Positions 5,188 to 22,374 of a stretch of 32,000 bases of DNA are shown in pieces. Source of the stretch: Telmatocola sphagniphila (GTDB taxonomy: Bacteria > Planctomycetota > Planctomycetia > Gemmatales > Gemmataceae). Below the pieces are notes generated by a model. It was not told where the DNA came from. It did not search any database and was given only the letters and a program-made list of their open reading frames with translations. A program made the translations under genes and the position numbers. Position 1 is the first letter of the stretch. Every line of letters begins with the position of its first letter. Where the stretch lies: assembly GCF_018398935.1 (NCBI RefSeq), contig NZ_CP074694.1, forward strand, positions 3,210,001 through 3,242,000. The letters run 5' to 3'.

Positions 5188-6723
5188 ATGAAGATTGGCA
5201 AAGTTTATCTCGTGGGAGCGGGCCCGGGCGATCCGGACCTACTGACTCTTAAAGCAAAACGGCTTCTGGATCAGGCAGATTTCGTTCTCTATGATCAGTT
5301 GCTCTCCCCCGAGGTATTGCGACTCATCCCTTCCTCCGCTCAGGCTCAGGCCGTGGAATCACTGCCCGGCAAACATCCGGAACGTTTCCACTCGATCTAC
5401 CAGAGCCTGATTGAGCATGCTCAAGCTGGACAACAAGTCGTCCGGCTCAAGAGCGGCGACCCGATGATTTTTGGGAGGGTCGGCGAAGAGACGGAAGCCC
5501 TTCGCAAAGCGGGCATTCCATACGAAATTGTCCCTGGAGTGACCGCCGCTCTGGCCGCGGGGGCTTACCTCGAAATCCCTTTGACCCATCGACTGCATTC
5601 CAGTCTGCTGACCATCGTGACCGGCCACGAATGCACGGCCAAAGGAAATAGTTCGCTCGACTGGGATAACCTCGCGACCAATCGGGGAACTCTGGCCTTC
5701 TATATGGGCGTCAGCCGGCTAGCGAGTATTGCCGACAATTTGATCGCTCATGGCAAATCACCTGACACCCCTTGTGCCGTGATTCACCGCGCAACCTGGA
5801 GTCGGCAACGGACAATCCGTGCTCCTCTGCAGGCGATCGCCGATCAGGTCCAGGCGGCGTCGCTGGAAGCGCCCGCGATTCTCCTGGTCGGCGAAGTGGT
5901 GGGACTTGGGGAAATCGAAGGTTGGTTCGAGGAAAAACCCTTGCTCGGTCAACGTATTCTGGTCACCCGTCCCCTCCCTCAGGCCGAGGAGTTAGCCAGA
6001 CTCCTTCGGGACCGAGGGGCCGAGCCGGTAATTTGCCCACTCATTGAAATCGCAGAGCCCGCTTCCTTCCATGCTCTGGATGAACTGATTCACCGTTTAA
6101 ATTCTCCACCGGTAGCCGCGGCAAAACCCTGGCTGATTTTCACCAGCATTAATGGCGTGGAACGTTTCGCCCAACGCTATCGAACGCTTGGCTACGATGC
6201 TCGGACCTTTGGCTCCAGCCGTATCGCGGCCATCGGCAAACGAACCGCTCAGGCGCTCGGCCAGCTTGGCTTGAAAACAGACATCGTGTCCGAAAACGAC
6301 TCGAGTTCAGAAGCCTTGCTACCGCTTCTAAAAACCGCAGTTTTAGGTTCTCAGGTCTACCTTTGTCAGGCCGAGGAGGGCCGAGAGTTACTGCTTGAAG
6401 AGCTTTCAAAGTTGACGCAGATCACCAAAGTGCCGGTCTATAGCCAGCGACCGATCGAAAAGGTCGATCTATCCAAGCTTGAGTTCGATGTGGCGATTCT
6501 CACCAGTCCGCAACTTGCTAGATTGTTCCTGCAAAAATGCACTCCGGAAATTCTTCAGAAAACCCGCGACGGGAGGATTACTCTGGCGGTCAATTCCCAA
6601 CGTTCGCGAGCCATTTTCGCGGAGGCAGGACTTCCGGTGCGATTCCAATCAGCACAGCCTGACATGGAATCGGTTGTGCAGAGCCTGCAAGTAGAAAAGG
6701 CTGAAGTGAACTATCGATTCTGA
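5188..6723 (+). CDS. cobA-hemD: Bifunctional uroporphyrinogen-III C-methyltransferase / uroporphyrinogen-III synthase (CobA-HemD fusion)
   Basis: The N-terminus [19 protein letters not shown] is the SUMT/tetrapyrrole methylase signature. The second half starts [32 protein letters not shown], which is typical of HemD. The gene begins 27 nt after the tatC stop. Confidence 0.85.
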
Positions 6724-8195
6724 TTAAAAAACTGAAGGATAGTCTTCGCTTCGTCGTAACCCAGATTCGCTGCCTTTCTGAACAACGATAGGGCTTCCTT
6801 TTCGTCCTTCTCGACCCCCCATCCTTCCATATACATCTTCCCCAAACTTGTCATCGATTCAGGTTCGTTGTTTTTGATCTCTAACTTGTACTGTTCGGCA
6901 GCGCCGCGCCGTAATTTTAACGCTTCTTCTCGATTTTTTTCTACTCCCAGGCCATGTTCGTATCTGATTGCAAGTTGATTCATCGCGTCGGGTTCATTGA
7001 GTTCTACCGCTTTTTTCAGCCATCTTAGGGCTTCTCTGTCGTCAACATCTGTTCCTTTTCCCTCTTCGAAAAAATTGGCAAGCCATGTCATTGCTTTTCT
7101 TTCTTTCCTTTCAGCGGCACGAAGAAACCATTTCAAAGCTTCTTTTTCATCGACTTCTACTCCGAAACCCTGTGCGTGGAGCAGACCTATACCATACATG
7201 CATTTCGACTGTCCCACTTCAGCCCCTTTTTTGAACCAACTGAAAGCCTCTCTATAATTTTTTTCGACACCTATTCCCGCAGCATAGAACATCCCCAACC
7301 GTCCGAAAGCTTCCGCGTTATTCGCTTCCCCGGCTTTCAAAAGCCATTTGAAAGCCTCTTGCGGATTCTGCGAGTCGTCTTGATTGTTAAAATAAAAAAA
7401 AGCCATGTTAAGCATGGCATTACTATTACCAATTTCGCAAGCCTTCTGAAGCAATTGAAACGCAGCTCTTGAATCCTTATGGAGGCCATTTTTTCCTAAA
7501 AAGTACCAAAGCCCCAATGCAGTCATTGCATCGGAAGATCCCATCTCTGCCGCTTTCTTACACCATTTCAAAGTATCTTTTTCGCTTTTTTCCGTTCCTA
7601 CTCCGTTTTGGAAATTGATTGACAGAGCATAGGCCGCGTCTGGATTCCCAAGCTCTACAGCCTTGTAATACCACTTGAACGCCAATTTCAAATCTTTGTT
7701 TACAATGACGCCATTCTCATAGCTTATTGCCAAAGCGTAAGCCGCTTGAGGATCATCGAATGCGGCTGCTTTCGAATAAAGTTTGAAAGCTTCTTTCACA
7801 TCTTTTGGTACGATTCTACCTTCTTCGTAGAGCCACCCCAGCTGGTAGATCGCTGCTGGAAGACCAGCCTTGGCAGCTTGACGATAATAACTGAGAGCTT
7901 TGACTGGATTTTTTTCGATTGAATAGCCTTCTGCCAGACAGCAGGCAAAAAGATATGCAGCGAAAGGCGATTCTTTTTCCGCGCCGGTTTTCCATTGTCC
8001 GATTCTCTCAGGCGCTTGCTCTTCAAAAAACTTCTTCGAACTTCCGAAAGTTTTTTGGAGTTCTTTAGAGTGTTTGAATTCTTCCTCGAAGACATCCTTC
8101 TTAGGCCGAGGAGCCGATTCGGCGTTGCTCTGTGCCAGTAGGAAGCTTTCCGTCGAGATAAAATGAATGAGACTGATAAAAATAATCCATCGCAT
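6711..8195 (-). CDS. Secreted Sel1-like repeat (SLR/TPR-family) protein
   Basis: It has an N-terminal signal-like segment, MRWIIFISLIHFISTESFLLAQS. About 11-12 repeats of roughly 36 aa follow, of the form A..W..KAAe.G...A...Lg..Y..G.GV.kd..eA. The 3' end overlaps cobA-hemD by 13 nt (convergent). Confidence 0.85.
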   Translation of the reverse strand: MRWIIFISLIHFISTESFLLAQSNAESAPRPKKDVFEEEFKHSKELQKTFGSSKKFFEEQAPERIGQWKTGAEKESPFAAYLFACCLAEGYSIEKNPVKALSYYRQAAKAGLPAAIYQLGWLYEEGRIVPKDVKEAFKLYSKAAAFDDPQAAYALAISYENGVIVNKDLKLAFKWYYKAVELGNPDAAYALSINFQNGVGTEKSEKDTLKWCKKAAEMGSSDAMTALGLWYFLGKNGLHKDSRAAFQLLQKACEIGNSNAMLNMAFFYFNNQDDSQNPQEAFKWLLKAGEANNAEAFGRLGMFYAAGIGVEKNYREAFSWFKKGAEVGQSKCMYGIGLLHAQGFGVEVDEKEALKWFLRAAERKERKAMTWLANFFEEGKGTDVDDREALRWLKKAVELNEPDAMNQLAIRYEHGLGVEKNREEALKLRRGAAEQYKLEIKNNEPESMTSLGKMYMEGWGVEKDEKEALSLFRKAANLGYDEAKTILQFFNQNR

Positions 8196-12944: not shown

Positions 12945-14312
12945 ATGAATCATATTCTAACTCGTCGAGCGGCTTTAAAGGGCCTGGGTACCATTGTAAC
13001 CCTGCCCTGGCTGGAAACTTTCTCCGCCGCCGCACCTGGTTCGGCCGCGAAATCGGCTCCGATGCGCACTGCATTCTTCTACGTGCCCAACGGCGTGCAC
13101 ATGCAGGACTGGAAACCGGCCAAAGTCGGCGCCGACTACGAACTTCCCTGGATCCTGGAACCGCTCAAAGAGTTCAAAAAAGACCTCAACGTCTACTCCG
13201 GTTTAACCTTGGATAAGGCTCGCCCCAACGGCGACGGAGCGGGCGATCATGCCCGCGCTCAGGCCGCATTCCTCACCGGCCGGCAACCCAAGAAGACCAA
13301 TGGCGCGGATATCCGCGCTGGACAATCCGCCGACCAGTGGATTGCGAACCAATTCAACGAACAGACCCGTTTTGCTTCGCTGGAACTGGGCATCGAGGGT
13401 GGCAAGTCCTCCGGCAACTGCGACTCCGGTTACAGCTGTGCCTACCAGTCGAACTTCTCCTGGCGCGGCGATTCGACCCCCAACGCCAAGGAAGTCGATC
13501 CCAAGGTCGTTTTCGAACGGCTCTTCGGCAACGGCACCAACAATGAAAAGGACGCAACCCGAGCCAAACGGGAAAAGCAAAATAAGAGCATCCTTGACTT
13601 CGTTATGGAAGACGCCAAGTCGCTCGATAATCAACTGGGCACCCACGACAAGCACAAGATGGACGAGTACCTGACGGCCGTGCGCGAACTCGAAGGCCGC
13701 ATCGAACGGGCTCGCAAGATGCGCGATCAGAAACCGGTGGCCCCGCCCGCCGGTACGGCGATTCCCACGGGAATTCCCAAGGATCTGAAAGAACATATGC
13801 GGTTGATGGGCGACCTGATGGTTCTGGCCTTCCAGACCGATATGACGCGTGTCGTGACCCTTCCACTGGCCAACGACGGAAGCAACCGCTCCCATAGCTT
13901 CCTGACGATTGATTGGGAAGGGAAACAAAAGCCGGTCAGCGAAGGTCACCATGAGATTTCGCATCACCAGGGCAACAAGGAAAACTTCGCCAAGCTGCGC
14001 GTGATCAATCGCTTCCATATCGAACAACTGGCTTACATGGTAGGCCGGCTGAAATCGATCAAAGAAGGCGAAAAATCGCTGCTGGACAACTGCATGATTG
14101 TCTATGGCTCCGGCATCGGCGACGGTAACCGCCATAATCACGACGACCTGCCGATCATCAGCATCGGTTCCTACGGCGGCAAAGTGAAAACCGGCCAGCA
14201 CCTGGAGTACGCCAAGGATACGCCGTTGATGAATCTTTACCTGGCCATGTTCGACAAGCTCGGCTGCCCGGTGAAGAGCTTCGGCGACAGCACTGGCGTG
14301 CTGAAGATCTGA
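12945..14312 (+). CDS. DUF1552 family protein with twin-arginine (Tat) signal
   Basis: N-terminus MNHILTRRAALKGLGTIVTLPW. This is the usual partner gene of DUF1592-type proteins in Planctomycetes, and the two appear translationally coupled (1-nt gap). Confidence 0.85.
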   Translation: MNHILTRRAALKGLGTIVTLPWLETFSAAAPGSAAKSAPMRTAFFYVPNGVHMQDWKPAKVGADYELPWILEPLKEFKKDLNVYSGLTLDKARPNGDGAGDHARAQAAFLTGRQPKKTNGADIRAGQSADQWIANQFNEQTRFASLELGIEGGKSSGNCDSGYSCAYQSNFSWRGDSTPNAKEVDPKVVFERLFGNGTNNEKDATRAKREKQNKSILDFVMEDAKSLDNQLGTHDKHKMDEYLTAVRELEGRIERARKMRDQKPVAPPAGTAIPTGIPKDLKEHMRLMGDLMVLAFQTDMTRVVTLPLANDGSNRSHSFLTIDWEGKQKPVSEGHHEISHHQGNKENFAKLRVINRFHIEQLAYMVGRLKSIKEGEKSLLDNCMIVYGSGIGDGNRHNHDDLPIISIGSYGGKVKTGQHLEYAKDTPLMNLYLAMFDKLGCPVKSFGDSTGVLKI

Positions 14313-14328
14313 TTTTGAAGAGGCCATT

Positions 14329-15049
14329 ATGGCTATTGAGCCCACTCCCCGGGAGGAATTCGAAAGTGTCTCGCCGGAATAGGAGCGGGACACCCGCCTC
14401 CTGCAAGTCGAGGACGATTCGACAGTGGAAAGCCTGTTTCACGAGAAGCTTTACCGGCTTCTCACAGTTCCGGTAATCAATTTCTGGAAATAACCGACAA
14501 ACAAACCATTCCGGATTTACGCCAACTTCGGCTTTTTTTTACGAGTACAAAAATCCACCTCTAGCGCCTGCTGTGATGCTGGCTCTCAATGTCGAACCGC
14601 AGCCAGGATCGATTCAGGATGCGGATAATCGCTTTTATTTTGTCTGGCGCATGGGCAAAGTTCCCGATGTTGTCCTCGAAATTGTGTCCGATCGACGAGG
14701 TAGGGAAGCCTCGGGAAAATTTGAATCCTATGCACGGATCGGTGTGCCTATCAACGTGATCTTCGCCCCACAAGAATTCTTGAAAATCGGCCTTTTGAAC
14801 GCTTATCGACTTGAAGAGGGAGAATATCTCCCGATCGATCCGGTGCATCTGGGAGATACAGGACTAGGACTGCTGTTGTGGAATGGGGAGTTTGAAAACT
14901 GCCGAGAAACCTCGATACTCTGAATTGATGCCCACAGACAACTCATCCCAACACCCATCGATTGTGAAGAACACTTGCAAGCGAAGTTGCGGGTAGAGCA
15001 GGAGAAGATCCGTCAGTTAGAGGCGCGGGTGAGGAATGAGGGGAAGTAA
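14329..15049 (+). pseudogene. Uma2 (DUF820, restriction-endonuclease-like) family gene, disrupted
   Basis: The reading can be followed through four lesions: an in-frame TAG at 14380-14382, an in-frame TAA at 14491-14493, a frame 1 to frame 2 switch at the T8 run 14533-14540, and an in-frame TGA at 14921-14923. The spliced reading contains family-like blocks: LLQVEDDSTVESLFHEKLYRLL, FRIYANFGFFYEYKNPPLAPAVMLALNVE and YFVWRMGKVPDVVLEIVSD...KFESYARIGVP. It ends in a coiled tail, QLIPTPIDCEEHLQAKLRVEQEKIRQLEARV. Confidence 0.6.
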
Positions 15050-15510
15050 GAGTCTGTGCAGTATCTGTATCTCTCCGTTCAACGCGGGCTGATTTGGGAA
15101 CGCAAATCCCTGATTTTTTCATTATGAAATCTGTTCTTAACACCCCTAACCTTCGATTGCGATAGGGACAAACGGCCCTCTCAAATATGCTTTAGGCTGA
15201 AGAATTGTCTGCCAAAGTATTCCAAATCCAAACTTACGGCGATTAGCATGTACCCAAGAATGGGTACGTATTTACTATTGTTAATTTTTTTTTATTTTTA
15301 ATTTGACTTTATTTTTGTTCAGATTACATTCAGAGAAAGTAGCCATTTCGGCTACGACGACAAACTGCCTAACGCCCAGATTTTTTGGCGATTTCTATCA
15401 GCCGAAAATTGAGTACTCGCTAGTTCCTGGGCATTTACGCATTTTCGTCAACATCTTTCATTGTATCCAGAAAGTTCTCTGGTACTCAATTGTTCGGAAA
15501 GGGACAAAGT

Positions 15511-15846
15511 ATGAAAAAGGTCATTTCAGTATGTTTGATCGCGACGGCGATGATTTCCCACAGTTTTTTGGGCATGCCTAGCAGGTATGTGGGTGCTGCA
15601 CAGCAGGTTCCCAGTCTTTGTACAGGAAATGTTGGTGGATACTCCTGTAGCGATGCAGAAGGCAATTCTTGTTTGGATTCACGTCAATACATCGCAAATA
15701 CACGAGTGCGAGGAGTACTAGAAGAAAAAGATGCGGAGAACCATGTCATAATTTACAATTGCAGTAATGTGTCCGGGAAACGGGATTGTCTGGGTGCTTG
15801 GACAAAACCGTCTACGGGTACGTGCGATGCAGTTATAGTAGATTGA
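15511..15846 (+). CDS. Small secreted cysteine-rich protein (111 aa; 6 Cys after the signal peptide)
   Basis: The ATG at 15511 is preceded by GGAAAGGGAcaaagt. The N-terminus MKKVISVCLIATAMISHSFLG is signal-like. The mature part has Cys in SLC, YSC, NSC, YNC, RDC and GTC contexts. I recognise no family. Confidence 0.55.
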   Translation: MKKVISVCLIATAMISHSFLGMPSRYVGAAQQVPSLCTGNVGGYSCSDAEGNSCLDSRQYIANTRVRGVLEEKDAENHVIIYNCSNVSGKRDCLGAWTKPSTGTCDAVIVD

Positions 15847-15875
15847 ATGATTGACATTTTGAGTAGCTTTTTGAG

Positions 15876-15910
15876 CGCTATCCATTTATAGATTTGTCGG
15901 GCGGATAGCG
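15876..15910 (+). terminator. Hairpin downstream of the small Cys-rich gene
   Basis: CGCTATCC (15876-15883) pairs with GGATAGCG (15903-15910), with a 19-nt loop. It is followed by AATTCTTTATT. A second hairpin pairs AAACCCTCG (15957-15965) with CGAGGGTTT (15991-15999). Both have long loops, so the call is weak. Confidence 0.25.
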
Positions 15911-16064
15911 AATTCTTTATTCAAGATGACTTAAGATTAAATTAAAAGATCCTAACAAACCCTCGGTATTAGCAGTTTTCACTGGACAAACGAGGGTTTT
16001 GTCAGGACCTCTAAGTGCGAATAGGACTCTTTAAACAATAGCCCCATAGCCAAGGCTTCACAAA

Positions 16065-18074
16065 ATGCGCAATTGCTTCTATTTACTGATCTTCATTTCG
16101 TCAGCACGGAATTTTTGCAACTTAGTACACGCACAAAGTTTAGATAATTTTGGATGCATCGGGATAGCTACTGATATAGATAATCCTTCTGAGAAATTTG
16201 CGTTCATCTCAGCGAGGAGTCCAGAAAAGGCCATATGTGGATTCTCGAGAATATCGGCTAAGAGTAAAGAGCAAAGAATCGATTTTTATGTGGCGCGATT
16301 GGGTCGGAAAACGATCACATTAGAATTTTCACTGAAACAAAACTTCAATTCTATAACGGATTTCAAATCGTACAAATATGAAGGTTCCGTCTTGGTTTCT
16401 GAAGAGACCGGAAGCGAATTGGATCTCATCAAATATTCACAAAGAGGATTTCTAGACACAATCTGTTTTGCCGCGGCAAGATCTAGATTGTCCGCAGACA
16501 TTTCACCTAAAGAATTTCAGACGGTGTATGCAGACGCAAAACAGAAACAAGGGTTGGCAAATAAATCATTTGAGAAAGGTGAGTTGTCTATTACAGTCAC
16601 AAAAGCGGGAGATATTCAAAAAATTGATTTTGCTCCCACTGCAGCAAGTCGCAATAAATACGCCGCAAGCTACACTTTCAACACCCCAGTGTCCGAACAA
16701 TCGACTAAATCTTCAGGCATATACAAAATGCAATTGATTGGTCGCGATAATGCGATATTCAAAAATAATTATTCAATAGAAGTCAGTCAATACTTATACG
16801 ACAAAGCATCTATTGAAGCTGTTATTGATAGCGCTTTAAAATGCATACCTATAAAAGAACGAATCGTCGCAAAAACACCCATTGAATACGAATGGAACGG
16901 AGTCGATGCAGTAAAATCCATAGATTTAGTGGGAATTAATGCGGCAGAGAAATCTCGCTTTTCGAATGTGATTTCCAACAAAACTTTTATTGTAAGCTCG
17001 ATCGCCATATTATTGGTTGGTCTGATATATTTTAAGCCCTGGAAGCGATTCTCGAAACATAAAAATTATTTATTATGTGTAGGCATTACTCTTTGCTATG
17101 GCAATTTTTGTTTCGCCGACGATTCGCAAATTGGGCCCTATTGCGGATTGCACTGCGTTTACGCTTCCGCGCAGGCACTAAATGAGAAGATCGATTTTGA
17201 AACTTTGTTGTCCGAGAAATTTGTCAGTAGTCACGAAGGAAGCTCGACTGAAGATCTAATTCGAGCCATATCGGAAACAACAAATTTAAAATCATTCGAC
17301 TACGGTCAAATGAGTATTGCACAACTGCGAGCCACGCAGTCTCCGGTAATTTTACATACCAGATCGCCAGGAATGGCGAATTACGATCACTGGGTGACTT
17401 TTCTCGGATTTACAGAGTCCGGAAAAGTTACAATCTACGACCCGCCTAGAGCCACAATGGATATCTCAACTTCTGAGTTGCTCTCGATCTGGGATGGCTC
17501 CGGACTTATCGTGAGCAGAAAATCGTTCGATGGGTCTGTGTTCAACCCCCCGATGGAATGGATTGCAATCGTAGTAATTACTATGTTTGTATTCTCGTTA
17601 CTAAAAAAAATATTAGCAAATCGTTTTCTCGTCATTCCAATCGCGACGGTTAGTATCGCGCTCGGCTGGCATATATTTTCACCTGTTGGTTTCTGGAACG
17701 GCAAATCTGGAATAGCATATATTACTGCTTCATATTTTCATACTACTCCCGAAGAAATCGATTTTGAACATTTCGATAGCATTAGGTCAAATATGAATGT
17801 TGCCCTAATAGATGCTCGACCCAGCGACATATATCGACGCAAGACTATTCCGGGAGCCTTGAACCTTCCTATTAATACGGGCTATTTGGGTATGAAAGAA
17901 ATCCTCCATCAAATTTCTCCAGATAAAACTGTGATTGTATTTTGTCAAAGTGAAAATTGCCTTTGGGCGGACGAAATAGCTGGTTTGTTCGTTCCTCAAG
18001 GTTACAAACATGTATTAATTTACCGCGGCGGCATGAACGATTGGAATCATCGCACCTCAACCTCTGGGAAATAA
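16065..18074 (+). CDS. Polytopic membrane protein: unknown N-terminal domain + C39-like (papain-fold) cysteine peptidase domain + C-terminal rhodanese-like domain
   Basis: The peptidase-like block is DDSQIGPYCGLHCVYASAQAL (Cys360, codon 17142-17144) ... YDHWVTFLGF (His442) ... VTIYDP (Asp459). This matches the Q/C...H...D pattern of bacteriocin-processing C39 domains. The rhodanese-like block is VALIDARPSDIYRRKTIPGALNLPIN...KTVIVFCQSENCLWADEIA...GYKHVLIYRGGMNDW (Cys627, Cys632). Hydrophobic segments: N-terminal signal-like, FIVSSIAILLVGLIYF, YLLCVGITLCYGNFCFA, WIAIVVITMFVFSLL and FLVIPIATVSIALGWHIF. Confidence 0.7.
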   Translation: MRNCFYLLIFISSARNFCNLVHAQSLDNFGCIGIATDIDNPSEKFAFISARSPEKAICGFSRISAKSKEQRIDFYVARLGRKTITLEFSLKQNFNSITDFKSYKYEGSVLVSEETGSELDLIKYSQRGFLDTICFAAARSRLSADISPKEFQTVYADAKQKQGLANKSFEKGELSITVTKAGDIQKIDFAPTAASRNKYAASYTFNTPVSEQSTKSSGIYKMQLIGRDNAIFKNNYSIEVSQYLYDKASIEAVIDSALKCIPIKERIVAKTPIEYEWNGVDAVKSIDLVGINAAEKSRFSNVISNKTFIVSSIAILLVGLIYFKPWKRFSKHKNYLLCVGITLCYGNFCFADDSQIGPYCGLHCVYASAQALNEKIDFETLLSEKFVSSHEGSSTEDLIRAISETTNLKSFDYGQMSIAQLRATQSPVILHTRSPGMANYDHWVTFLGFTESGKVTIYDPPRATMDISTSELLSIWDGSGLIVSRKSFDGSVFNPPMEWIAIVVITMFVFSLLKKILANRFLVIPIATVSIALGWHIFSPVGFWNGKSGIAYITASYFHTTPEEIDFEHFDSIRSNMNVALIDARPSDIYRRKTIPGALNLPINTGYLGMKEILHQISPDKTVIVFCQSENCLWADEIAGLFVPQGYKHVLIYRGGMNDWNHRTSTSGK

Positions 18075-18079
18075 TTTTT

Positions 18080-18541
18080 ATGTTATATCGAGATTGGATT
18101 ATCGGCTTACCCGTTTCGGGAATATTGCTTTTTTCCTCATTCCCGCTTATCGACAATAGCTATCATTTTCTTTCCACTATTTATTCGTATCAGATTTGCA
18201 ACCAGTCATTTGGAATTGCGACCTCCATGTTACTTCCATTTTTTCAGTTAACAATAGGTTTAGCCTTGTTAACTGATGAGAGATTGCGAAGACCCGCATT
18301 TGTATTTTCAGCTTTCCTGTTTTTCTCCTTTGCCACTTTACAAATAATCACGCTCGCAAGAGGTTTGAATATATCTTGCGGTTCTTTCGGCGGCTCCGCC
18401 TCAAATCCTATAGGAATTAAATCGATTTCAATTTCGGCAATCGGATTTCTTCTCTCGTGTGTTGGGTTCTGCACCAAGTCATCGGCAGAGAGTCGGGAGC
18501 AGACTCGTTCGCCTGGATCGGCTCGAGAAAATCTCACCTAA
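18080..18541 (+). CDS. MauE/DoxX-family redox-associated membrane protein (153 aa)
   Basis: I take the start at ATG 18080, 5 nt after the upstream stop; the ORF track's extension to 17957 overlaps that gene. Four TM segments are present. The family-like layout is ...LLPFFQLTIGLALL..., ...FLFFSFATLQIITLARGLNISCGSFGG. As I recall, the canonical motif is CGCFG; here it is CGSFG, with Cys100 at codon 18377-18379. Confidence 0.65.
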   Translation: MLYRDWIIGLPVSGILLFSSFPLIDNSYHFLSTIYSYQICNQSFGIATSMLLPFFQLTIGLALLTDERLRRPAFVFSAFLFFSFATLQIITLARGLNISCGSFGGSASNPIGIKSISISAIGFLLSCVGFCTKSSAESREQTRSPGSARENLT

Positions 18542-18804
18542 ATACCTAATGGAAGGTTATTTAATCTGAATAGTTACGATTCTTGACATCTGCGGTTTCC
18601 ATTGGCTCCGCCTAGACCATGGATCCTGCAAGCACTTCTCTTGAAAAAGAGTTCCTTCGCGCGAAAGACCGATTTCGTCTGAATGCCAATGCCGCGGCTT
18701 CTCTTAACTGACACCTCCCTCCACCAAATTATCTCGCTTTTTCGAAAAATCGCGATTATCATTTTCAAGGATAACCCTCCCGCCCGCTTCTGTGAGACTC
18801 TCGC

Positions 18805-21800
18805 ATGCTTCGTCTGTTTCTCGTTGCCGCTCTGGCTCTGTCGCTTTGGAATAACCGGGCCGCCGCGCAAGTTCCGCCGGAAAAATCGATCTCGACCATG
18901 AAGGTCTCCCCCGATCTGAAAGTCGAACTGTTTGCATCCGAACCGATGCTCATCAACCCGACGGCCATGGACATCGATCATAAAGGGCGGGTCTGGATCA
19001 CCGAAGCCGTTAATTACCGGCGAAAGAACTTTGGCCGACCGATCCTGCGGCCCGAGGGGGACCGCATCGTCGTTCTCACAGACAAGACTGGCGAAGGCAA
19101 AGCGACCGAGGCCGTTACGTTCTACCAATCGCCGGAGTTGATTGCTCCTCTGGGCATTTGCGTCGTTCCCTATGCCGACGGCAAAGGACAGAAAGTGTTC
19201 GTGGCTCAGTCCCCGAATATCTGGGTTTTCGAAGACAAAGACGGCGATCTTAAGGCCGACGGACCACCCAAGGTACTGCTGACGGGCTTTGGTGGTTTCG
19301 ACCACGATCACGGCGTCCACGGCCTGAGCATCGGGCCGGATAACAAGCTCTATTTCACCGTGGGCGATCAAGGCGTTAAAGACTTACAATCGAGCGATGG
19401 CAAGGGCCGGAAGTGGACCAGCAATAATACCGATTGCCGCGCCGGTACGGTCTGGCGTTGCGATCAGGATGGCACCCATCTCGAATTGATCGCTCACAAT
19501 TTCCGCAACAATTACGAGTGCTGCGTCAACAGCTTCGGCGAAATCTGGCTCTCCGACAACGACGACGACGGCAACCAGCAAACTCGCATCTGCTACGTCA
19601 TGCCCGGTGGTAACTACGGCTATCATCCACGTGGGCCGGGCGAAAGTCACTGGCATGAAGAACAGCCGGGAATCGTTCACAAAGTCTTGCGAACCGGCTT
19701 CGGCAGCCCGACCGGAATCACCTTCTATGAAGGCACTCTGATGCCGGAAAGATTCCAAGGCGAACTGCTGCATTGCGACGCCGGACCACGAGAGGTGCGA
19801 CGATTCAAACGTATTCCGCGTGGTGCTGGTTACGAACTTGAGAAAGAAGTGATTCTGACTAGTACCGATAATTGGTTCCGACCAGTCGATGTGCGGGTGG
19901 CTCCCGATGGCAGTATTTTCGTCTGCGACTGGTACGACCCCGGCGTCGGCGGTCACGGCATGGGCGACTGGACCCGCGGCCGAGTCTATCGCATCACGCC
20001 GAAGGAGCATAAGGGGTATAAGATTCCCAGTTACAATCTCAACGCCGACGATGATTTGCTCGCCGGCTTCAATAACCCGAATTTGGCCACCCGAAACTAC
20101 ATCCGGGCCGCGCTCGTCAAAGCCAAAGAAGATCAACGATTCAGCGTATTATTTAATGCTCTGAGAAGTTCGGAGAACAAAAATACGACATCGGCTCGAG
20201 CTCTATATGCGTTTTCGACGATGATGTATCCGCAATATCTCGACCGGATCTGCGATACGGTTCTCTACAACAGCCACTTCCAACCGATTTGGACCACCCT
20301 GATTCGTATCGTCGATGAAACTCGGCACCCAGTTTCGTTCGACAAGTTTCTTCCCTCGGCGGAAAAGAAATCTTTCGAAAGCTGGCTGAACAATACGGAC
20401 ATTGAACAGCGTACAGAATTGCTTCTGGTTTCCCGAAATATGCCTGCGGAAGCGATCAGCAAGTTCTTTTACGAACAGGCCAAGAGTTGGAACGGCCAGG
20501 ACCGCTTCTACCTTTCTGCCCTCAACATCGCTTGCGGAACGGAACCAACGCGTCGCGCGGCCCTACTCGCCGATTTCGAGAAAAACTTCCCCGAATGGAA
20601 CGACAAAGTCGCCGATCTGGTCTGGGAACTCCGACCCAAATCGATGTTGACCAAGCTGGGAACCCTCCTCGATGATCCCAAACTCACGGCCACTCAGAAA
20701 TCTCGAGTCATTGATATCCTGGCTTCTTCGGATGAGGCCGAGGCAGGGAAATCGCTCCTGGCACTTCTCGGTAAAACAGCGAGCCCCGAGATTCGCGACC
20801 GCATTCTCGATAACCTGAAGCGATTCCTACCCGGCAAGTGGAACTCACTTCGTCAGGCCCCCGAATTGACTCAGGCTATCGCCAAGCTCATCGGCGATAA
20901 ATCGACGGCCGTGGCCGGGTTAGGATTAATTGCCGTTTCCAAGCGGAATGAAATGCTGGAGAAGGTCGAAAGCCTCATCCACAACAAGGAAATGCCGCTG
21001 GAAGTCCGGCAGAAGGCCGTGCTGACGCTGGGGAGTCTCTGGAATTCCAACACCATCGAAATTCTTCATCATCTGCTGATGGAGAAAGAATTGGCCCCCA
21101 AGGCGGTGGAAGCTCTCGGCGTCATTCTCGATGAAGCGGGCCGACGACAGACTGAAACCAGCGTCCATGCCATTAAGCTGTTAACCACGGCCTTGACTCA
21201 ACCGGAATTCGCCGCCCTACGATCTCAGATTCTCGGCGTCCTGGCCGGTAGCCGTCCGGGGGTGCAGTATCTGATTTCGGAACAGGAAAAGAAAAAACTG
21301 CCCGCAGAACTGGTAATGGAAGCCGGTCGACTGGCCCGCAACACTCCTCACCAGGATTTACGAAATCGGGCCATGATCGCTTTCCCGGTAACGGCGGGGA
21401 AGCTTGATCCCAAGAAACTTCCGGCCATTTCCGAACTGATTAAACGCAACGGCAATGCCGAGCATGGGAAAACGCTGCTTCTGGCGTCCTTGAAAAACGA
21501 ATCGCAATGCTTGCGTTGTCACATGGTACGCGGCATCGGGGGCAACATCGGACCCGATCTTTCGATGATCGGCAAGAAGGCCGCCGGGAAAGAAAACCTC
21601 TACGACTCGATTCTTACCCCGTCGAAGGCCATCGCCGATCAGTACATCCAATGGACGATCGTAGATGAAGGCGGTCAGTCGGTCACCGGCCTGCTGGTCG
21701 GCGAGACGGAAACCGAAGTCGCCATTCGCGATGCGAACGGGAAAGATACAAAAATCCCCTTGAAATCGATCGAACAGCGAAAGAAGAGTCTGGTTTCGCT

Positions 21801-22374
21801 GATGCCCGATAACCTGGTTGCCACCATGAGCGAATCCGATCTCATCGATCTCGTCGAATATCTGACCACGCTGAAAACCGCTTCGTTGACCCCCGAAAGT
21901 TTCCAGATCGTCGGACCATTCCCGAACGACGAATCCGATTCGGGACTGCGAACGGCCTTCGAACCTGAAAAAGGCCCTATCAATCTCGGGGCGAAGTATA
22001 AGGGCAAAGAAGGGGACGTCACCTGGCGGACCATCAAGAGCAACGGCGGCGGTTATTTCGATCTGAAATCTTTCCATGCACCGAAGAGCGATCTGATCAC
22101 CTCGTACGTCTACCAGACCATCGAATCCCCCAAGGATCAAGCGGCAGTTCTTCTTTTAGGTCACGACGATGGCGTGAAACTGTGGGTCAACGGCAAAGAA
22201 GTCTACAACGACGCCTCACACGTGGCTGCACAACCCGAGCAACAGAAGATCCCAGTGACGCTGAAGAAAGGTAAGAACGAAATTCTGATGAAGATTATCA
22301 ACGGGGATGGCGAGCACGGCTTCTACTTTGCCTTAACCAGCGAGGAAGAACTGAAGCTGGCCGGGAAGAAATAG
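18805..22374 (+). CDS. PVC-type heme-binding CxxCH protein: membrane-bound dehydrogenase-like beta-propeller + HEAT repeats + cytochrome c domain + C-terminal beta-sandwich-like domain
   Basis: Signal peptide MLRLFLVAALALSLWNNRAAA. The N-terminal block FASEPMLINPTAMDIDHKGRVWITEAVNYR is typical of the Pirellula/Verrucomicrobium 'putative membrane-bound dehydrogenase' domain. A central helical-repeat region follows. The heme motif CLRCHMVRGIGGNIGPDLS lies at 21508-21522. The C-terminal region is LLLGHDDGVKLWVNGKEVYND...GEHGFYFAL. Confidence 0.85.
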   Translation: MLRLFLVAALALSLWNNRAAAQVPPEKSISTMKVSPDLKVELFASEPMLINPTAMDIDHKGRVWITEAVNYRRKNFGRPILRPEGDRIVVLTDKTGEGKATEAVTFYQSPELIAPLGICVVPYADGKGQKVFVAQSPNIWVFEDKDGDLKADGPPKVLLTGFGGFDHDHGVHGLSIGPDNKLYFTVGDQGVKDLQSSDGKGRKWTSNNTDCRAGTVWRCDQDGTHLELIAHNFRNNYECCVNSFGEIWLSDNDDDGNQQTRICYVMPGGNYGYHPRGPGESHWHEEQPGIVHKVLRTGFGSPTGITFYEGTLMPERFQGELLHCDAGPREVRRFKRIPRGAGYELEKEVILTSTDNWFRPVDVRVAPDGSIFVCDWYDPGVGGHGMGDWTRGRVYRITPKEHKGYKIPSYNLNADDDLLAGFNNPNLATRNYIRAALVKAKEDQRFSVLFNALRSSENKNTTSARALYAFSTMMYPQYLDRICDTVLYNSHFQPIWTTLIRIVDETRHPVSFDKFLPSAEKKSFESWLNNTDIEQRTELLLVSRNMPAEAISKFFYEQAKSWNGQDRFYLSALNIACGTEPTRRAALLADFEKNFPEWNDKVADLVWELRPKSMLTKLGTLLDDPKLTATQKSRVIDILASSDEAEAGKSLLALLGKTASPEIRDRILDNLKRFLPGKWNSLRQAPELTQAIAKLIGDKSTAVAGLGLIAVSKRNEMLEKVESLIHNKEMPLEVRQKAVLTLGSLWNSNTIEILHHLLMEKELAPKAVEALGVILDEAGRRQTETSVHAIKLLTTALTQPEFAALRSQILGVLAGSRPGVQYLISEQEKKKLPAELVMEAGRLARNTPHQDLRNRAMIAFPVTAGKLDPKKLPAISELIKRNGNAEHGKTLLLASLKNESQCLRCHMVRGIGGNIGPDLSMIGKKAAGKENLYDSILTPSKAIADQYIQWTIVDEGGQSVTGLLVGETETEVAIRDANGKDTKIPLKSIEQRKKSLVSLMPDNLVATMSESDLIDLVEYLTTLKTASLTPESFQIVGPFPNDESDSGLRTAFEPEKGPINLGAKYKGKEGDVTWRTIKSNGGGYFDLKSFHAPKSDLITSYVYQTIESPKDQAAVLLLGHDDGVKLWVNGKEVYNDASHVAAQPEQQKIPVTLKKGKNEILMKIINGDGEHGFYFALTSEEELKLAGKK

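Follow-up and report, generated by a model that had tools for sequence, protein, structure and literature searches.

A conserved planctomycete operon combining a cysteine-rich mini-protein, a C39–rhodanese membrane protein and MauE, and its possibly impaired copy in Telmatocola sphagniphila

What, if anything, do three closely packed genes in an AT-rich segment of the Telmatocola sphagniphila genome do together? The genes lie on the forward strand of a 32,000-nucleotide (nt) stretch of contig NZ_CP074694.1 (positions 3,210,001 to 3,242,000; below, the window, with positions counted from its first letter) and encode a secreted Cys-rich mini-protein of 111 amino acids (aa), a 669-aa membrane protein with C39 peptidase and rhodanese domains, and a 153-aa MauE-family protein. 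An initial annotation had read them as a horizontally acquired, self-contained unit for processing and oxidative folding or persulfide handling, with the mini-protein as its candidate substrate. Our analysis supports that interpretation overall. On the comparisons given below, the module consists of known parts in an arrangement undescribed in the literature that we searched, and is a conserved planctomycete operon of four to five components, of which the window holds a possibly impaired copy that is fused and lacks a pseudopilin gene.

Domains of the module and its recurrence in Planctomycetota

The large gene (16065–18074, + strand), defined by its open reading frame (ORF), Pfam matches and homology, fuses an N-terminal domain, which we call 'mid', to a core of C39 peptidase, two transmembrane (TM) helices and rhodanese. 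The Peptidase_C39, Rhodanese and MauE assignments made at the outset all proved to lie above the curated Pfam cut-offs. Peptidase_C39 (PF03412) scores 40.5 bits against a cut-off of 22 over aa 360–486 of a domain placed at aa 358–486 (17136–17522, +), and its triad, C360 in GPYCGL (17142–17144), H442 (HW) and D459 (YDPP), is invariant or nearly so in the family. Rhodanese (PF00581) scores 51.1 bits against 22.2, the domain spanning aa 577–661 (17793–18047, +), and its active-site loop CQSENC contains two invariant cysteines, Cys627 (17943–17945) and Cys632 (17958–17960), the family form being C-Q-S-x-x-C. The invariant second cysteine of this CX4C loop suggests dithiol/disulfide chemistry in the rhodanese domain. 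The MauE gene (18080–18541, +) has its ATG at 18080, 5 nt after the stop codon of the 669-aa gene, so that the description of three same-strand genes with the last two 5 nt apart holds; its product matches MauE (PF07291) at 47.1 bits against 27 and has four hydrophobic (TM) segments with K/R-rich loops on one side. Pfam found no ATP-binding cassette (ABC) transporter domain in the 669-aa protein, and its C39, predicted to be periplasmic, does not correspond to the N-terminal cytoplasmic domain of an ABC exporter.

Structural comparisons agree with these assignments. Among the matches of the family profile are the peptidase domains of PCAT1 (4ry2, E 6e-7) and ComA (3k8u) and many rhodaneses, BH2092 with the same CX4C being one of them. 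An AlphaFold2 (AF2) model built from a 10-sequence alignment is confident for both C39 (predicted local distance difference test, pLDDT, 75–93) and rhodanese, with pLDDT below 50 at residues 1–144 and 193–247 of the 'mid' domain, and Foldseek of this model returns the same C39 and rhodanese neighbours as the profile search; persulfide reductase and CoADR rhodanese domains are among the nearest. The 'mid' domain itself gave no PDB match in profile searches with mid-domain alignments, and no Pfam match. The large ORF is 100% identical to KIH39_12795, which NCBI lists with 560 aa and a start at about 16392. Because homology to the related protein P0003 begins at residue 37 and includes a matching conserved signal peptide, the comparison supports the ATG at 16065, giving 669 aa, as the right start and so corrects the NCBI length.

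A word-indexed protein search with the 669-aa protein and the mini-protein returned only the proteins themselves or a near-identical strain, and no close relative of the single window protein turned up in a metagenome scan; the family surfaced in an exhaustive HMMER search of 1.84 billion cluster representatives. The C39–rhodanese architecture occurs in 279 of these at E<=1e-30, the best 150 of which all share the core. Most members are 'short forms' of 330–400 aa, consisting of a signal peptide, C39, two TM helices and rhodanese, and a few are 'long forms' of 650–680 aa like the window protein. Of the 142 full-length top matches, 139 keep the C39 Cys motif and 140 the rhodanese CX4C. Named hosts are almost always planctomycetes (Isosphaerales, Pirellulales, Planctomycetaceae, Sedimentisphaerales, Limnoglobus and Kuenenia), and the source names say merely 'rhodanese-related sulfurtransferase' or 'hypothetical'. 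Hundreds of proteins bearing the former name belong, on this evidence, to a distinct multi-gene system.

Gene neighbourhoods were compared in about 35 distinct loci, collected by exact-protein look-ups and two pattern scans, with ORFs scanned by hidden Markov models (HMMs) built for this analysis. A MauE gene directly follows the C39–rhodanese gene in about 33 of the 35, often with overlapping stop and start codons, the exceptions (L031 and L046) being truncated copies. Homologues of the three window genes keep the gene order of the window in about 30 other, independent loci from several planctomycete orders, a co-occurrence that the initial annotation had proposed to look for. The claim that the unit is self-contained fared less well, as the relatives have further components. 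One is 'mid', a protein of about 400 aa encoded upstream of the core, which starts with a signal peptide, is anchored by a TM segment at its C-terminus and belongs to no Pfam family. In the long forms, and hence here, 'mid' is fused to the core; the N-terminal domain of the window protein aligns with these separate proteins at an hhalign probability of 63.6% (E 6.7e-5, 64 columns), and the closest relative, L039, keeps a separate gene that the HMM of the long-form N-domain finds at 3e-12. The other component is a DUF1559 (SBP_bac_10) protein, with 6–9 Cys and a GspG-like prepilin N-terminus, encoded right after MauE in about three quarters of loci. It is missing from several otherwise complete loci (the window, L020, L023, L044 and L045), no DUF1559 gene being present anywhere in the window. 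In five loci MauE and DUF1559 form a single ORF (L024 2803–4296, L029 1066–2529, L033 6052–7422, L036 5837–7351 and L043 4830–6341); the L024 fusion carries an internal prepilin GFxxxE cleavage/methylation motif at aa 207–229, and prepilin peptidase might split the halves.

Some loci carry additional genes. A second C39–rhodanese core gene lies about 2 kb upstream of a complete module in L023 (1279–2391) and L045 (258–1391), with no MauE or mid match recorded in between. One lineage has an 1146-aa ORF after the pseudopilin gene (L010 8872–12312 and L011 5877–9317) that matches nothing in Pfam, NCBIfam or PADLOC, and a phage-type integrase adjoins it in L011. An anti-phage defence reading of the module was rejected, PADLOC giving no matches. 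No ABC exporter or candidate immunity gene is conserved across the loci, and PADLOC and NCBIfam gave no family matches. We found no description of this combination in the literature or in the curated family libraries that we searched, in agreement with the earlier impression that no characterized system has it.

The mini-protein and its candidate processing site

The mini gene (15511–15846, +; ATG at 15511) was defined from its ORF, from homologues at long-form loci and from a leave-one-out HMM. Its 111-aa product has seven cysteines, six of them after the signal sequence, and is laid out as an N-terminal signal/anchor sequence, a short pro-region and a domain of the form C-x8-C-x7-C-x29-C-x8-C-x11-C-x6-end with six conserved Cys. 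It has no Pfam or NCBIfam match and is apparently absent from the NCBI protein set, its sole match in a collection of 5.8 billion proteins being a Logan contig. Homologous 6-Cys mini-proteins with the same Cys spacing are nevertheless present at every long-form homologue, and an HMM built from four other members finds the window mini-protein at E 2.2e-8 as the only significant match among 416 window ORFs. Because of this match to the long-form mini-protein family, we conclude on sequence grounds that the mini gene is real and travels with the enzyme gene.

Beyond the long forms, a small same-strand ORF (97–147 aa) with a hydrophobic N-terminus and 6–13 Cys lies upstream in about 30 of the 33 loci with enough upstream sequence. 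These candidate cargo proteins are hypervariable, falling into at least four sequence families, and their Cys numbers are even or near-even with conserved spacing. Two loci have tandem, diverged Cys-rich cargo genes ahead of a single module (L025 2874–3612 and L044 441–1359), an arrangement that recalls multi-precursor loci of bacteriocins and of RiPPs, peptides made on the ribosome and modified after translation.

A motif shared by the cargo set points to where a C39 peptidase could act. Of 24 cargoes, 23 have the pair G-[G/A/S] no more than 12 residues upstream of the first mature Cys, with position -3 usually taken by a hydrophobic residue, whereas shuffled sequences gave a mean of 9.9 (sd 2.3) and none of 2000 shuffles reached 23; cargoes found in a later locus scan show the same pattern. 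In the window the candidate double-glycine-type site falls at codons 26–28, Val-Gly-Ala (15586–15594, +), in the context SRYVGA|AQQVPSLC, 12 aa past the hydrophobic core and 7 aa short of the first mature Cys. The site usually lies 12–27 aa beyond the hydrophobic core, and because this distance is too great for signal peptidase I, a pro-peptide with a double-glycine-type site is favoured, even if sequence cannot fully separate the two. We take the G-[GAS] pair as a candidate point of cleavage. Together with the constant presence of the mini-protein at long-form loci and its HMM score, the motif strengthens the case for the mini-protein as candidate substrate.

Between the mini gene and the 669-aa gene, immediately behind the stop codon of the former, folding against shuffled sequences picks out an RNA hairpin (15855–15928, +) with a minimum free energy of -21.9 kcal/mol (z -2.34; 1 of 200 shuffles as stable). 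It was not flagged by the terminator scan, and the promoter and terminator consensus scans were at background level. The hairpin is possibly an intra-operon attenuator that could raise the cargo transcript relative to the enzyme transcript.

A proposed periplasmic maturation machine

The 669-aa protein begins with a signal peptide and the 'mid' domain (aa 1–302; 16065–16970, +), identified by homology to the separate gene of short-form loci. It continues with TM1 (aa 303–321), a K/R-rich cytoplasmic loop and a hydrophobic segment at aa 335–352 (together 16971–17120, +), drawn from hydropathy, a positive-inside count and the alignment with short forms, whose signal peptide aligns to aa 335–352. 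Between the C39 and rhodanese domains hydropathy places a TM hairpin (aa 492–510 and 516–534; 17538–17666, +) with a short KK-containing cytoplasmic turn, the AF2 model setting its helices at 497–516 and 520–538. Because the K/R-rich loops of the window protein lie after TM1 and inside the 492–534 hairpin, and because a signal peptide stands directly ahead of C39 in the short forms, the N-terminal, C39 and rhodanese domains are all predicted to be periplasmic, by hydropathy, the positive-inside rule and signal peptides. In this the C39 domain would differ from classical C39 domains, which are cytoplasmic.

Recent work bears on the third protein. In E. coli, MauE proteins from two phyla can stand in for DsbB, according to a preprint of March 2026 (10.64898/2026.03.05.709764); they have a periplasmic CXC as active site, most often CGC-F-G, and changing either of its cysteines to Ala abolishes activity in the two MauEs tested. 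The same preprint predicts quinone binding, expects MauE to act through a carrier protein and uses TOPCONS to place the active-site loop of other MauEs in the periplasm; it mentions neither rhodanese, C39 nor Planctomycetes (10.64898/2026.03.05.709764). MauE as a DsbB-like oxidase fits the oxidative-folding idea of the initial annotation (10.64898/2026.03.05.709764). In the window MauE the TM3–TM4 loop with the active site is likewise predicted to be periplasmic, and the relatives keep the reported CGCFG signature, with CGC in all 24 complete neighbour MauEs. Only the window protein reads Cys-Gly-Ser at codons 100–102 (TGC GGT TCT; 18377–18385, +), the second Cys of the CXC site being replaced by Ser. 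Because the preprint mutagenesis makes both Cys essential, CGS should inactivate disulfide generation by the window MauE, and the local module may be unable to make disulfides on its own.

The data establish the domain identities, the conserved catalytic residues, a gene order common to about 35 loci, the motif of the cargoes and the anomalous composition. Our preferred reading is that the operon is a periplasm-facing inner-membrane machine that matures a small, hypervariable, Cys-rich, Sec-exported protein by cutting and oxidizing it, with the rhodanese CX4C in the role of DsbA; we judge its chances of being right to be about even. The mini-protein would be exported, or anchored, through its N-terminal hydrophobic sequence. 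MauE, DsbB-like and probably using quinone, would make disulfides at its periplasmic CXC loop, and these would pass to the invariant CX4C loop of the periplasmic rhodanese, which would take the carrier role held elsewhere by the thioredoxin-fold proteins DsbA and MauD and would oxidize the 6–13 cargo cysteines. The adjacent periplasmic C39 domain would then cut the pro-region at the hydrophobic-G-[G/A/S] site before the first Cys, releasing the folded domain. Accessory roles would fall to the 'mid' domain, which is fused in the window protein, and to the DUF1559 pseudopilin, which the window lacks; they may hold the cargo or pass it to a type-II-secretion-like export system. The rhodanese domain is the obvious candidate for the carrier because MauE is expected to act through one, because no thioredoxin-family protein is listed in the gene calls and Pfam matches of the loci, and because CX4C is the only other conserved periplasmic Cys pair in them.

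Comparison with known systems brings out what is shared and what is new. The mau cluster, in which MauE and MauD mature MauA, resembles our loci in that MauE and a periplasmic redox partner are encoded beside a small disulfide-packed periplasmic protein. However, Pfam and NCBIfam matches of the window genes and of the related loci include no MauA, MauB, MauD or MauG, and the partner is a rhodanese CX4C rather than a thioredoxin-fold CXXC; moreover, our loci add the C39 peptidase, 'mid' and the pseudopilin, their cargo is hypervariable and unrelated to MauA, and the window MauE lacks the second active-site Cys. With the DsbB–DsbA, VKOR–thioredoxin and MauE pathways the loci share a four-helix membrane protein whose periplasmic Cys pair would feed a periplasmic carrier, but here the system is a dedicated operon with its own client, not a housekeeping one, and the candidate carrier lies outside the thioredoxin superfamily. 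The C39 domain has the papain fold and Cys/His/Asp triad of the leader peptidases PCAT1, ComA and LahT, and the candidate substrates have G-[G/A/S] before the mature part. It differs from these enzymes in having no ABC transporter fusion and in being predicted to act in the periplasm after Sec export instead of in the cytoplasm coupled to transport; the cargoes have a Sec-type hydrophobic N-terminus in place of a cytoplasmic amphipathic leader, and a hydrophobic residue at -3 in place of the classical -4/-7.

Compared with class II bacteriocin and RiPP operons, a dedicated exporter and an immunity gene were not found among the conserved genes of our loci. A precedent in gene content comes from decRiPPter (Kloosterman et al. 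2020, PMC7794033), in which mauE was found in Streptomyces outside mau clusters, beside predicted precursors with at least eight Cys, and was read by the authors as serving peptide modification. These families, which also include mauD, share with ours a mauE next to a Cys-rich predicted precursor outside a mau cluster, but they come from another phylum, are purely computational and were reported without a C39–rhodanese protein, 'mid' or pseudopilin (PMC7794033). A rhodanese fold coupled to a membrane redox protein is also seen in TsoB (NCBIfam NF045694), a rhodanese/DsbD fusion-like selenoprotein, to which our rhodanese part has a weak match (27.8 against a cut-off of 805); the membrane partner and the side of the membrane differ.

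Several considerations weigh against the proposed machine. Rhodaneses usually carry out persulfide transfer, and to our knowledge no rhodanese domain is known to act as a disulfide carrier. Every biochemical step of the scheme is one that we infer. The topology was assigned from hydropathy alone, and aa 335–352 is weakly hydrophobic, below the TM threshold used. The G-[GAS] pair with its hydrophobic -3 residue also resembles a signal-peptidase-I site and in a few cargoes, e.g. that of L035, lies near the hydrophobic core; in addition, the cargo sequences are phylogenetically non-independent, so that the shuffle statistic overstates the significance. The role of the DUF1559 pseudopilin is unexplained, and its fusion to MauE in five loci could mean that it is the true client. 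Finally, the CGS site of the window MauE, the missing pseudopilin and the substitutions in a second strain, described below, make function in this genome doubtful.

The main chemical rival is a sulfur-transfer module, in which Cys627 would carry a persulfide resolved by Cys632, sulfur would enter the cargo as trisulfides or persulfides or the module would handle periplasmic reactive sulfur, and MauE would serve as a quinone-linked electron sink. We modelled it on what we take to be similar arrangements, the DoxD/DoxA thiosulfate:quinone oxidoreductase and the mycobacterial DoxX–SseA complex. The M. tuberculosis DoxX–SseA–SodA complex couples a rhodanese to a membrane redox protein, with SseA in the cytoplasm, and involves neither a protease nor a peptide cargo. 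In favour of sulfur transfer, the fold and the catalytic Cys of rhodanese are conserved, persulfide reductase and CoADR rhodanese domains are among the nearest structural neighbours, NCBIfam lists rhodanese/DsbD-type fusions such as TsoB, and the family of MauE is, we presume, labelled MauE/DoxX by NCBI. However, classical sulfurtransferases manage without a second Cys at +5, which is invariant here, the many cargo cysteines with their even or near-even numbers and conserved spacing are typical of structural disulfides, no sulfur-metabolism gene is listed in the gene calls and Pfam matches of the loci, and MauE is a DsbB-like disulfide generator (10.64898/2026.03.05.709764). Overall, we consider sulfur transfer unlikely. 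Still less probable, in our judgement, is that the DUF1559 pseudopilin, or a type-II-secretion-like pseudopilus, is the true client, with the mini-protein as a minor or tip subunit or as cargo and the window module as a remnant. The frequent adjacency of DUF1559 to the module, its sharing of one ORF with MauE in five loci, the internal GFxxxE motif kept in the fusion, the GspG-like N-terminus and the 6–9 Cys would all suit such a client, but otherwise complete loci can do without DUF1559 while nearly every locus has the Cys-rich ORF, planctomycete genomes contain DUF1559 genes in such large numbers that chance adjacency becomes more frequent, and the G-[GAS] motif and the need for a C39 peptidase would be left unexplained. 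That the three genes are merely unrelated neighbours and the small ORF no real gene might be argued from the absence of a Pfam or NCBIfam family and of an apparent NCBI record for the mini-protein; the recurrence of the gene order in about 30 independent loci of several orders, the conserved Cys spacing and the significant leave-one-out HMM refute it, and we regard it as next to impossible.

A different kind of rival concerns this genome only, namely that, irrespective of what the family does in other genomes, the module here is what remains of an island acquired by horizontal transfer, no longer functional and in decay; this we regard as a serious possibility, a little short of an even chance. 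The window has CGS where 24 of 24 relatives have CGC, at a site both of whose Cys were essential in the tested MauEs (10.64898/2026.03.05.709764); it contains no DUF1559 gene, and a decayed Uma2 gene adjoins the module. A second strain adds to this. A Logan contig (L001, from SRR12193040) that corresponds to window 15352–16588 is 98.7% identical to it and has a TCA-to-TAA stop at codon 13 of the large gene; its substitutions, four non-synonymous to one synonymous in the mini gene and five plus the nonsense change to three in the large gene, total about 10:4 and are roughly neutral in ratio. Together, the CGS site, the missing pseudopilin, the stop and the non-synonymous excess suggest, and do not establish, relaxed constraint or decay. 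On the other hand, the window keeps all three reading frames open, along with the C39 triad, the rhodanese CX4C and the six Cys of the cargo, a DsbB, VKOR or second MauE elsewhere in the host could supply the oxidizing power, and the stop codon in the other strain comes from one short assembled contig. The four non-synonymous changes in the mini gene of that strain fall in codons 24–36, around the proposed processing site.

Returning to the maturation machine, a tentative extension of it, and a somewhat improbable one, is that these operons form a dedicated and so far unrecognized post-Sec pathway for an extensive, hypervariable group of secreted mini-proteins rich in disulfides, in which a rhodanese CX4C replaces the thioredoxin fold, a C39 peptidase works in the periplasm and a pseudopilin hands the product on to type-II-like secretion; the products may make up a new planctomycete family of bacteriocins, toxins or adhesins. 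If the machine works as proposed, this would be the first rhodanese-fold domain to serve as a periplasmic disulfide carrier and the first C39 leader peptidase to act after Sec export, and MauE, newly recognized as a third bacterial disulfide generator, would gain a defined client system, a natural partner and a testable substrate. The operons would also point to secreted, hypervariable peptides rich in disulfides as an untapped resource of Planctomycetota, from which few natural products have been characterized, and would link these peptides to the unexplained expansion of DUF1559 pseudopilin-like genes.

The AT-rich segment and its surroundings

The low-GC (G+C fraction) segment that contains the module (15001–18560, no strand) was delimited by windowed GC and by GC at third codon positions (GC3). 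In 500-nt steps from 15001 to 18500 the GC is 0.410, 0.426, 0.402, 0.374, 0.430, 0.404 and 0.410, against 0.53–0.61 upstream (13001–14500) and 0.57–0.58 downstream (19001–20000), a sharp break with a difference of about -0.13 from the flanks. GC3 is 0.393 in the mini gene, 0.388 in the 669-aa gene and 0.409 in the MauE gene, against 0.58–0.73 in the other large genes of the window, a Sel1-repeat gene (0.438) being the exception. Set against the host level of about 0.54, a GC of 0.40–0.45 marks the module as deviating in composition. The drop in G+C and the shift to A/T-ending codons that had been described are thus both borne out. The genes around the segment belong to typical planctomycete families (DUF1552, PSD/PSCyt and DUF7133–HEAT–cytochrome c).

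Horizontal acquisition, which had been put forward from this composition, is the part of the earlier reading that stands only in part. The compositional anomaly is real, but the family as a whole, and not this locus alone, has a GC below that of its hosts: of 28 other loci, 24 have a module GC lower than the flank GC (mean difference -0.045; Wilcoxon p = 2e-5), and the long-form clade shows the strongest effect. The pattern is consistent with an accessory module that either passes between genomes or withstands amelioration, and IS66, integrase, toxin–antitoxin or Uma2 genes adjoin the module in several other loci. The segment itself contains no mobility gene, as had been stated, and neither a tRNA gene nor flanking direct repeats, and the window has no integrase or transposase. 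A classical integrative element, for which tRNA, att-like repeats and an integrase are lacking in the window, was rejected. Because the window shows no integration signature, we go no further than to call horizontal acquisition of the segment plausible.

Upstream of the segment, the Uma2 ORF at 14573–14923 proved to be a sub-threshold fragment (24.8 bits against a cut-off of 27, covering profile positions 89–156 of 172), which agrees with its description as a decayed gene. With the DUF7133–HEAT–cytochrome c gene (18805–22374) it flanks the module, and the same two families flank the module of an Isosphaerales metagenome-assembled genome (L002 4874–8776) in a different orientation. Given an identity of just 25% between the DUF7133 proteins and the unlike orientation, the shared flanks are probably a coincidence between abundant planctomycete families, and a functional link to the neighbouring DUF7133–HEAT–cytochrome c gene was rejected for the low identity of its L002 counterpart.

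Two further features lie elsewhere in the window. A second low-GC patch is formed by the gene of a 494-aa protein with 11 Sel1 repeats (6711–8195, -), whose GC is 0.443 and GC3 0.438, the rest of the window being at about 0.54; it is probably another compositionally foreign gene. Between 22483 and 30928 lies an operon, unrelated to the module, of an ABC ATPase, an ABC-2 permease, an ABC_transp_aux-like 831-aa protein and a 1428-aa protein with eight DUF4340 repeats, which we take to resemble a gliding-type (Gld-like) ABC transporter cluster.

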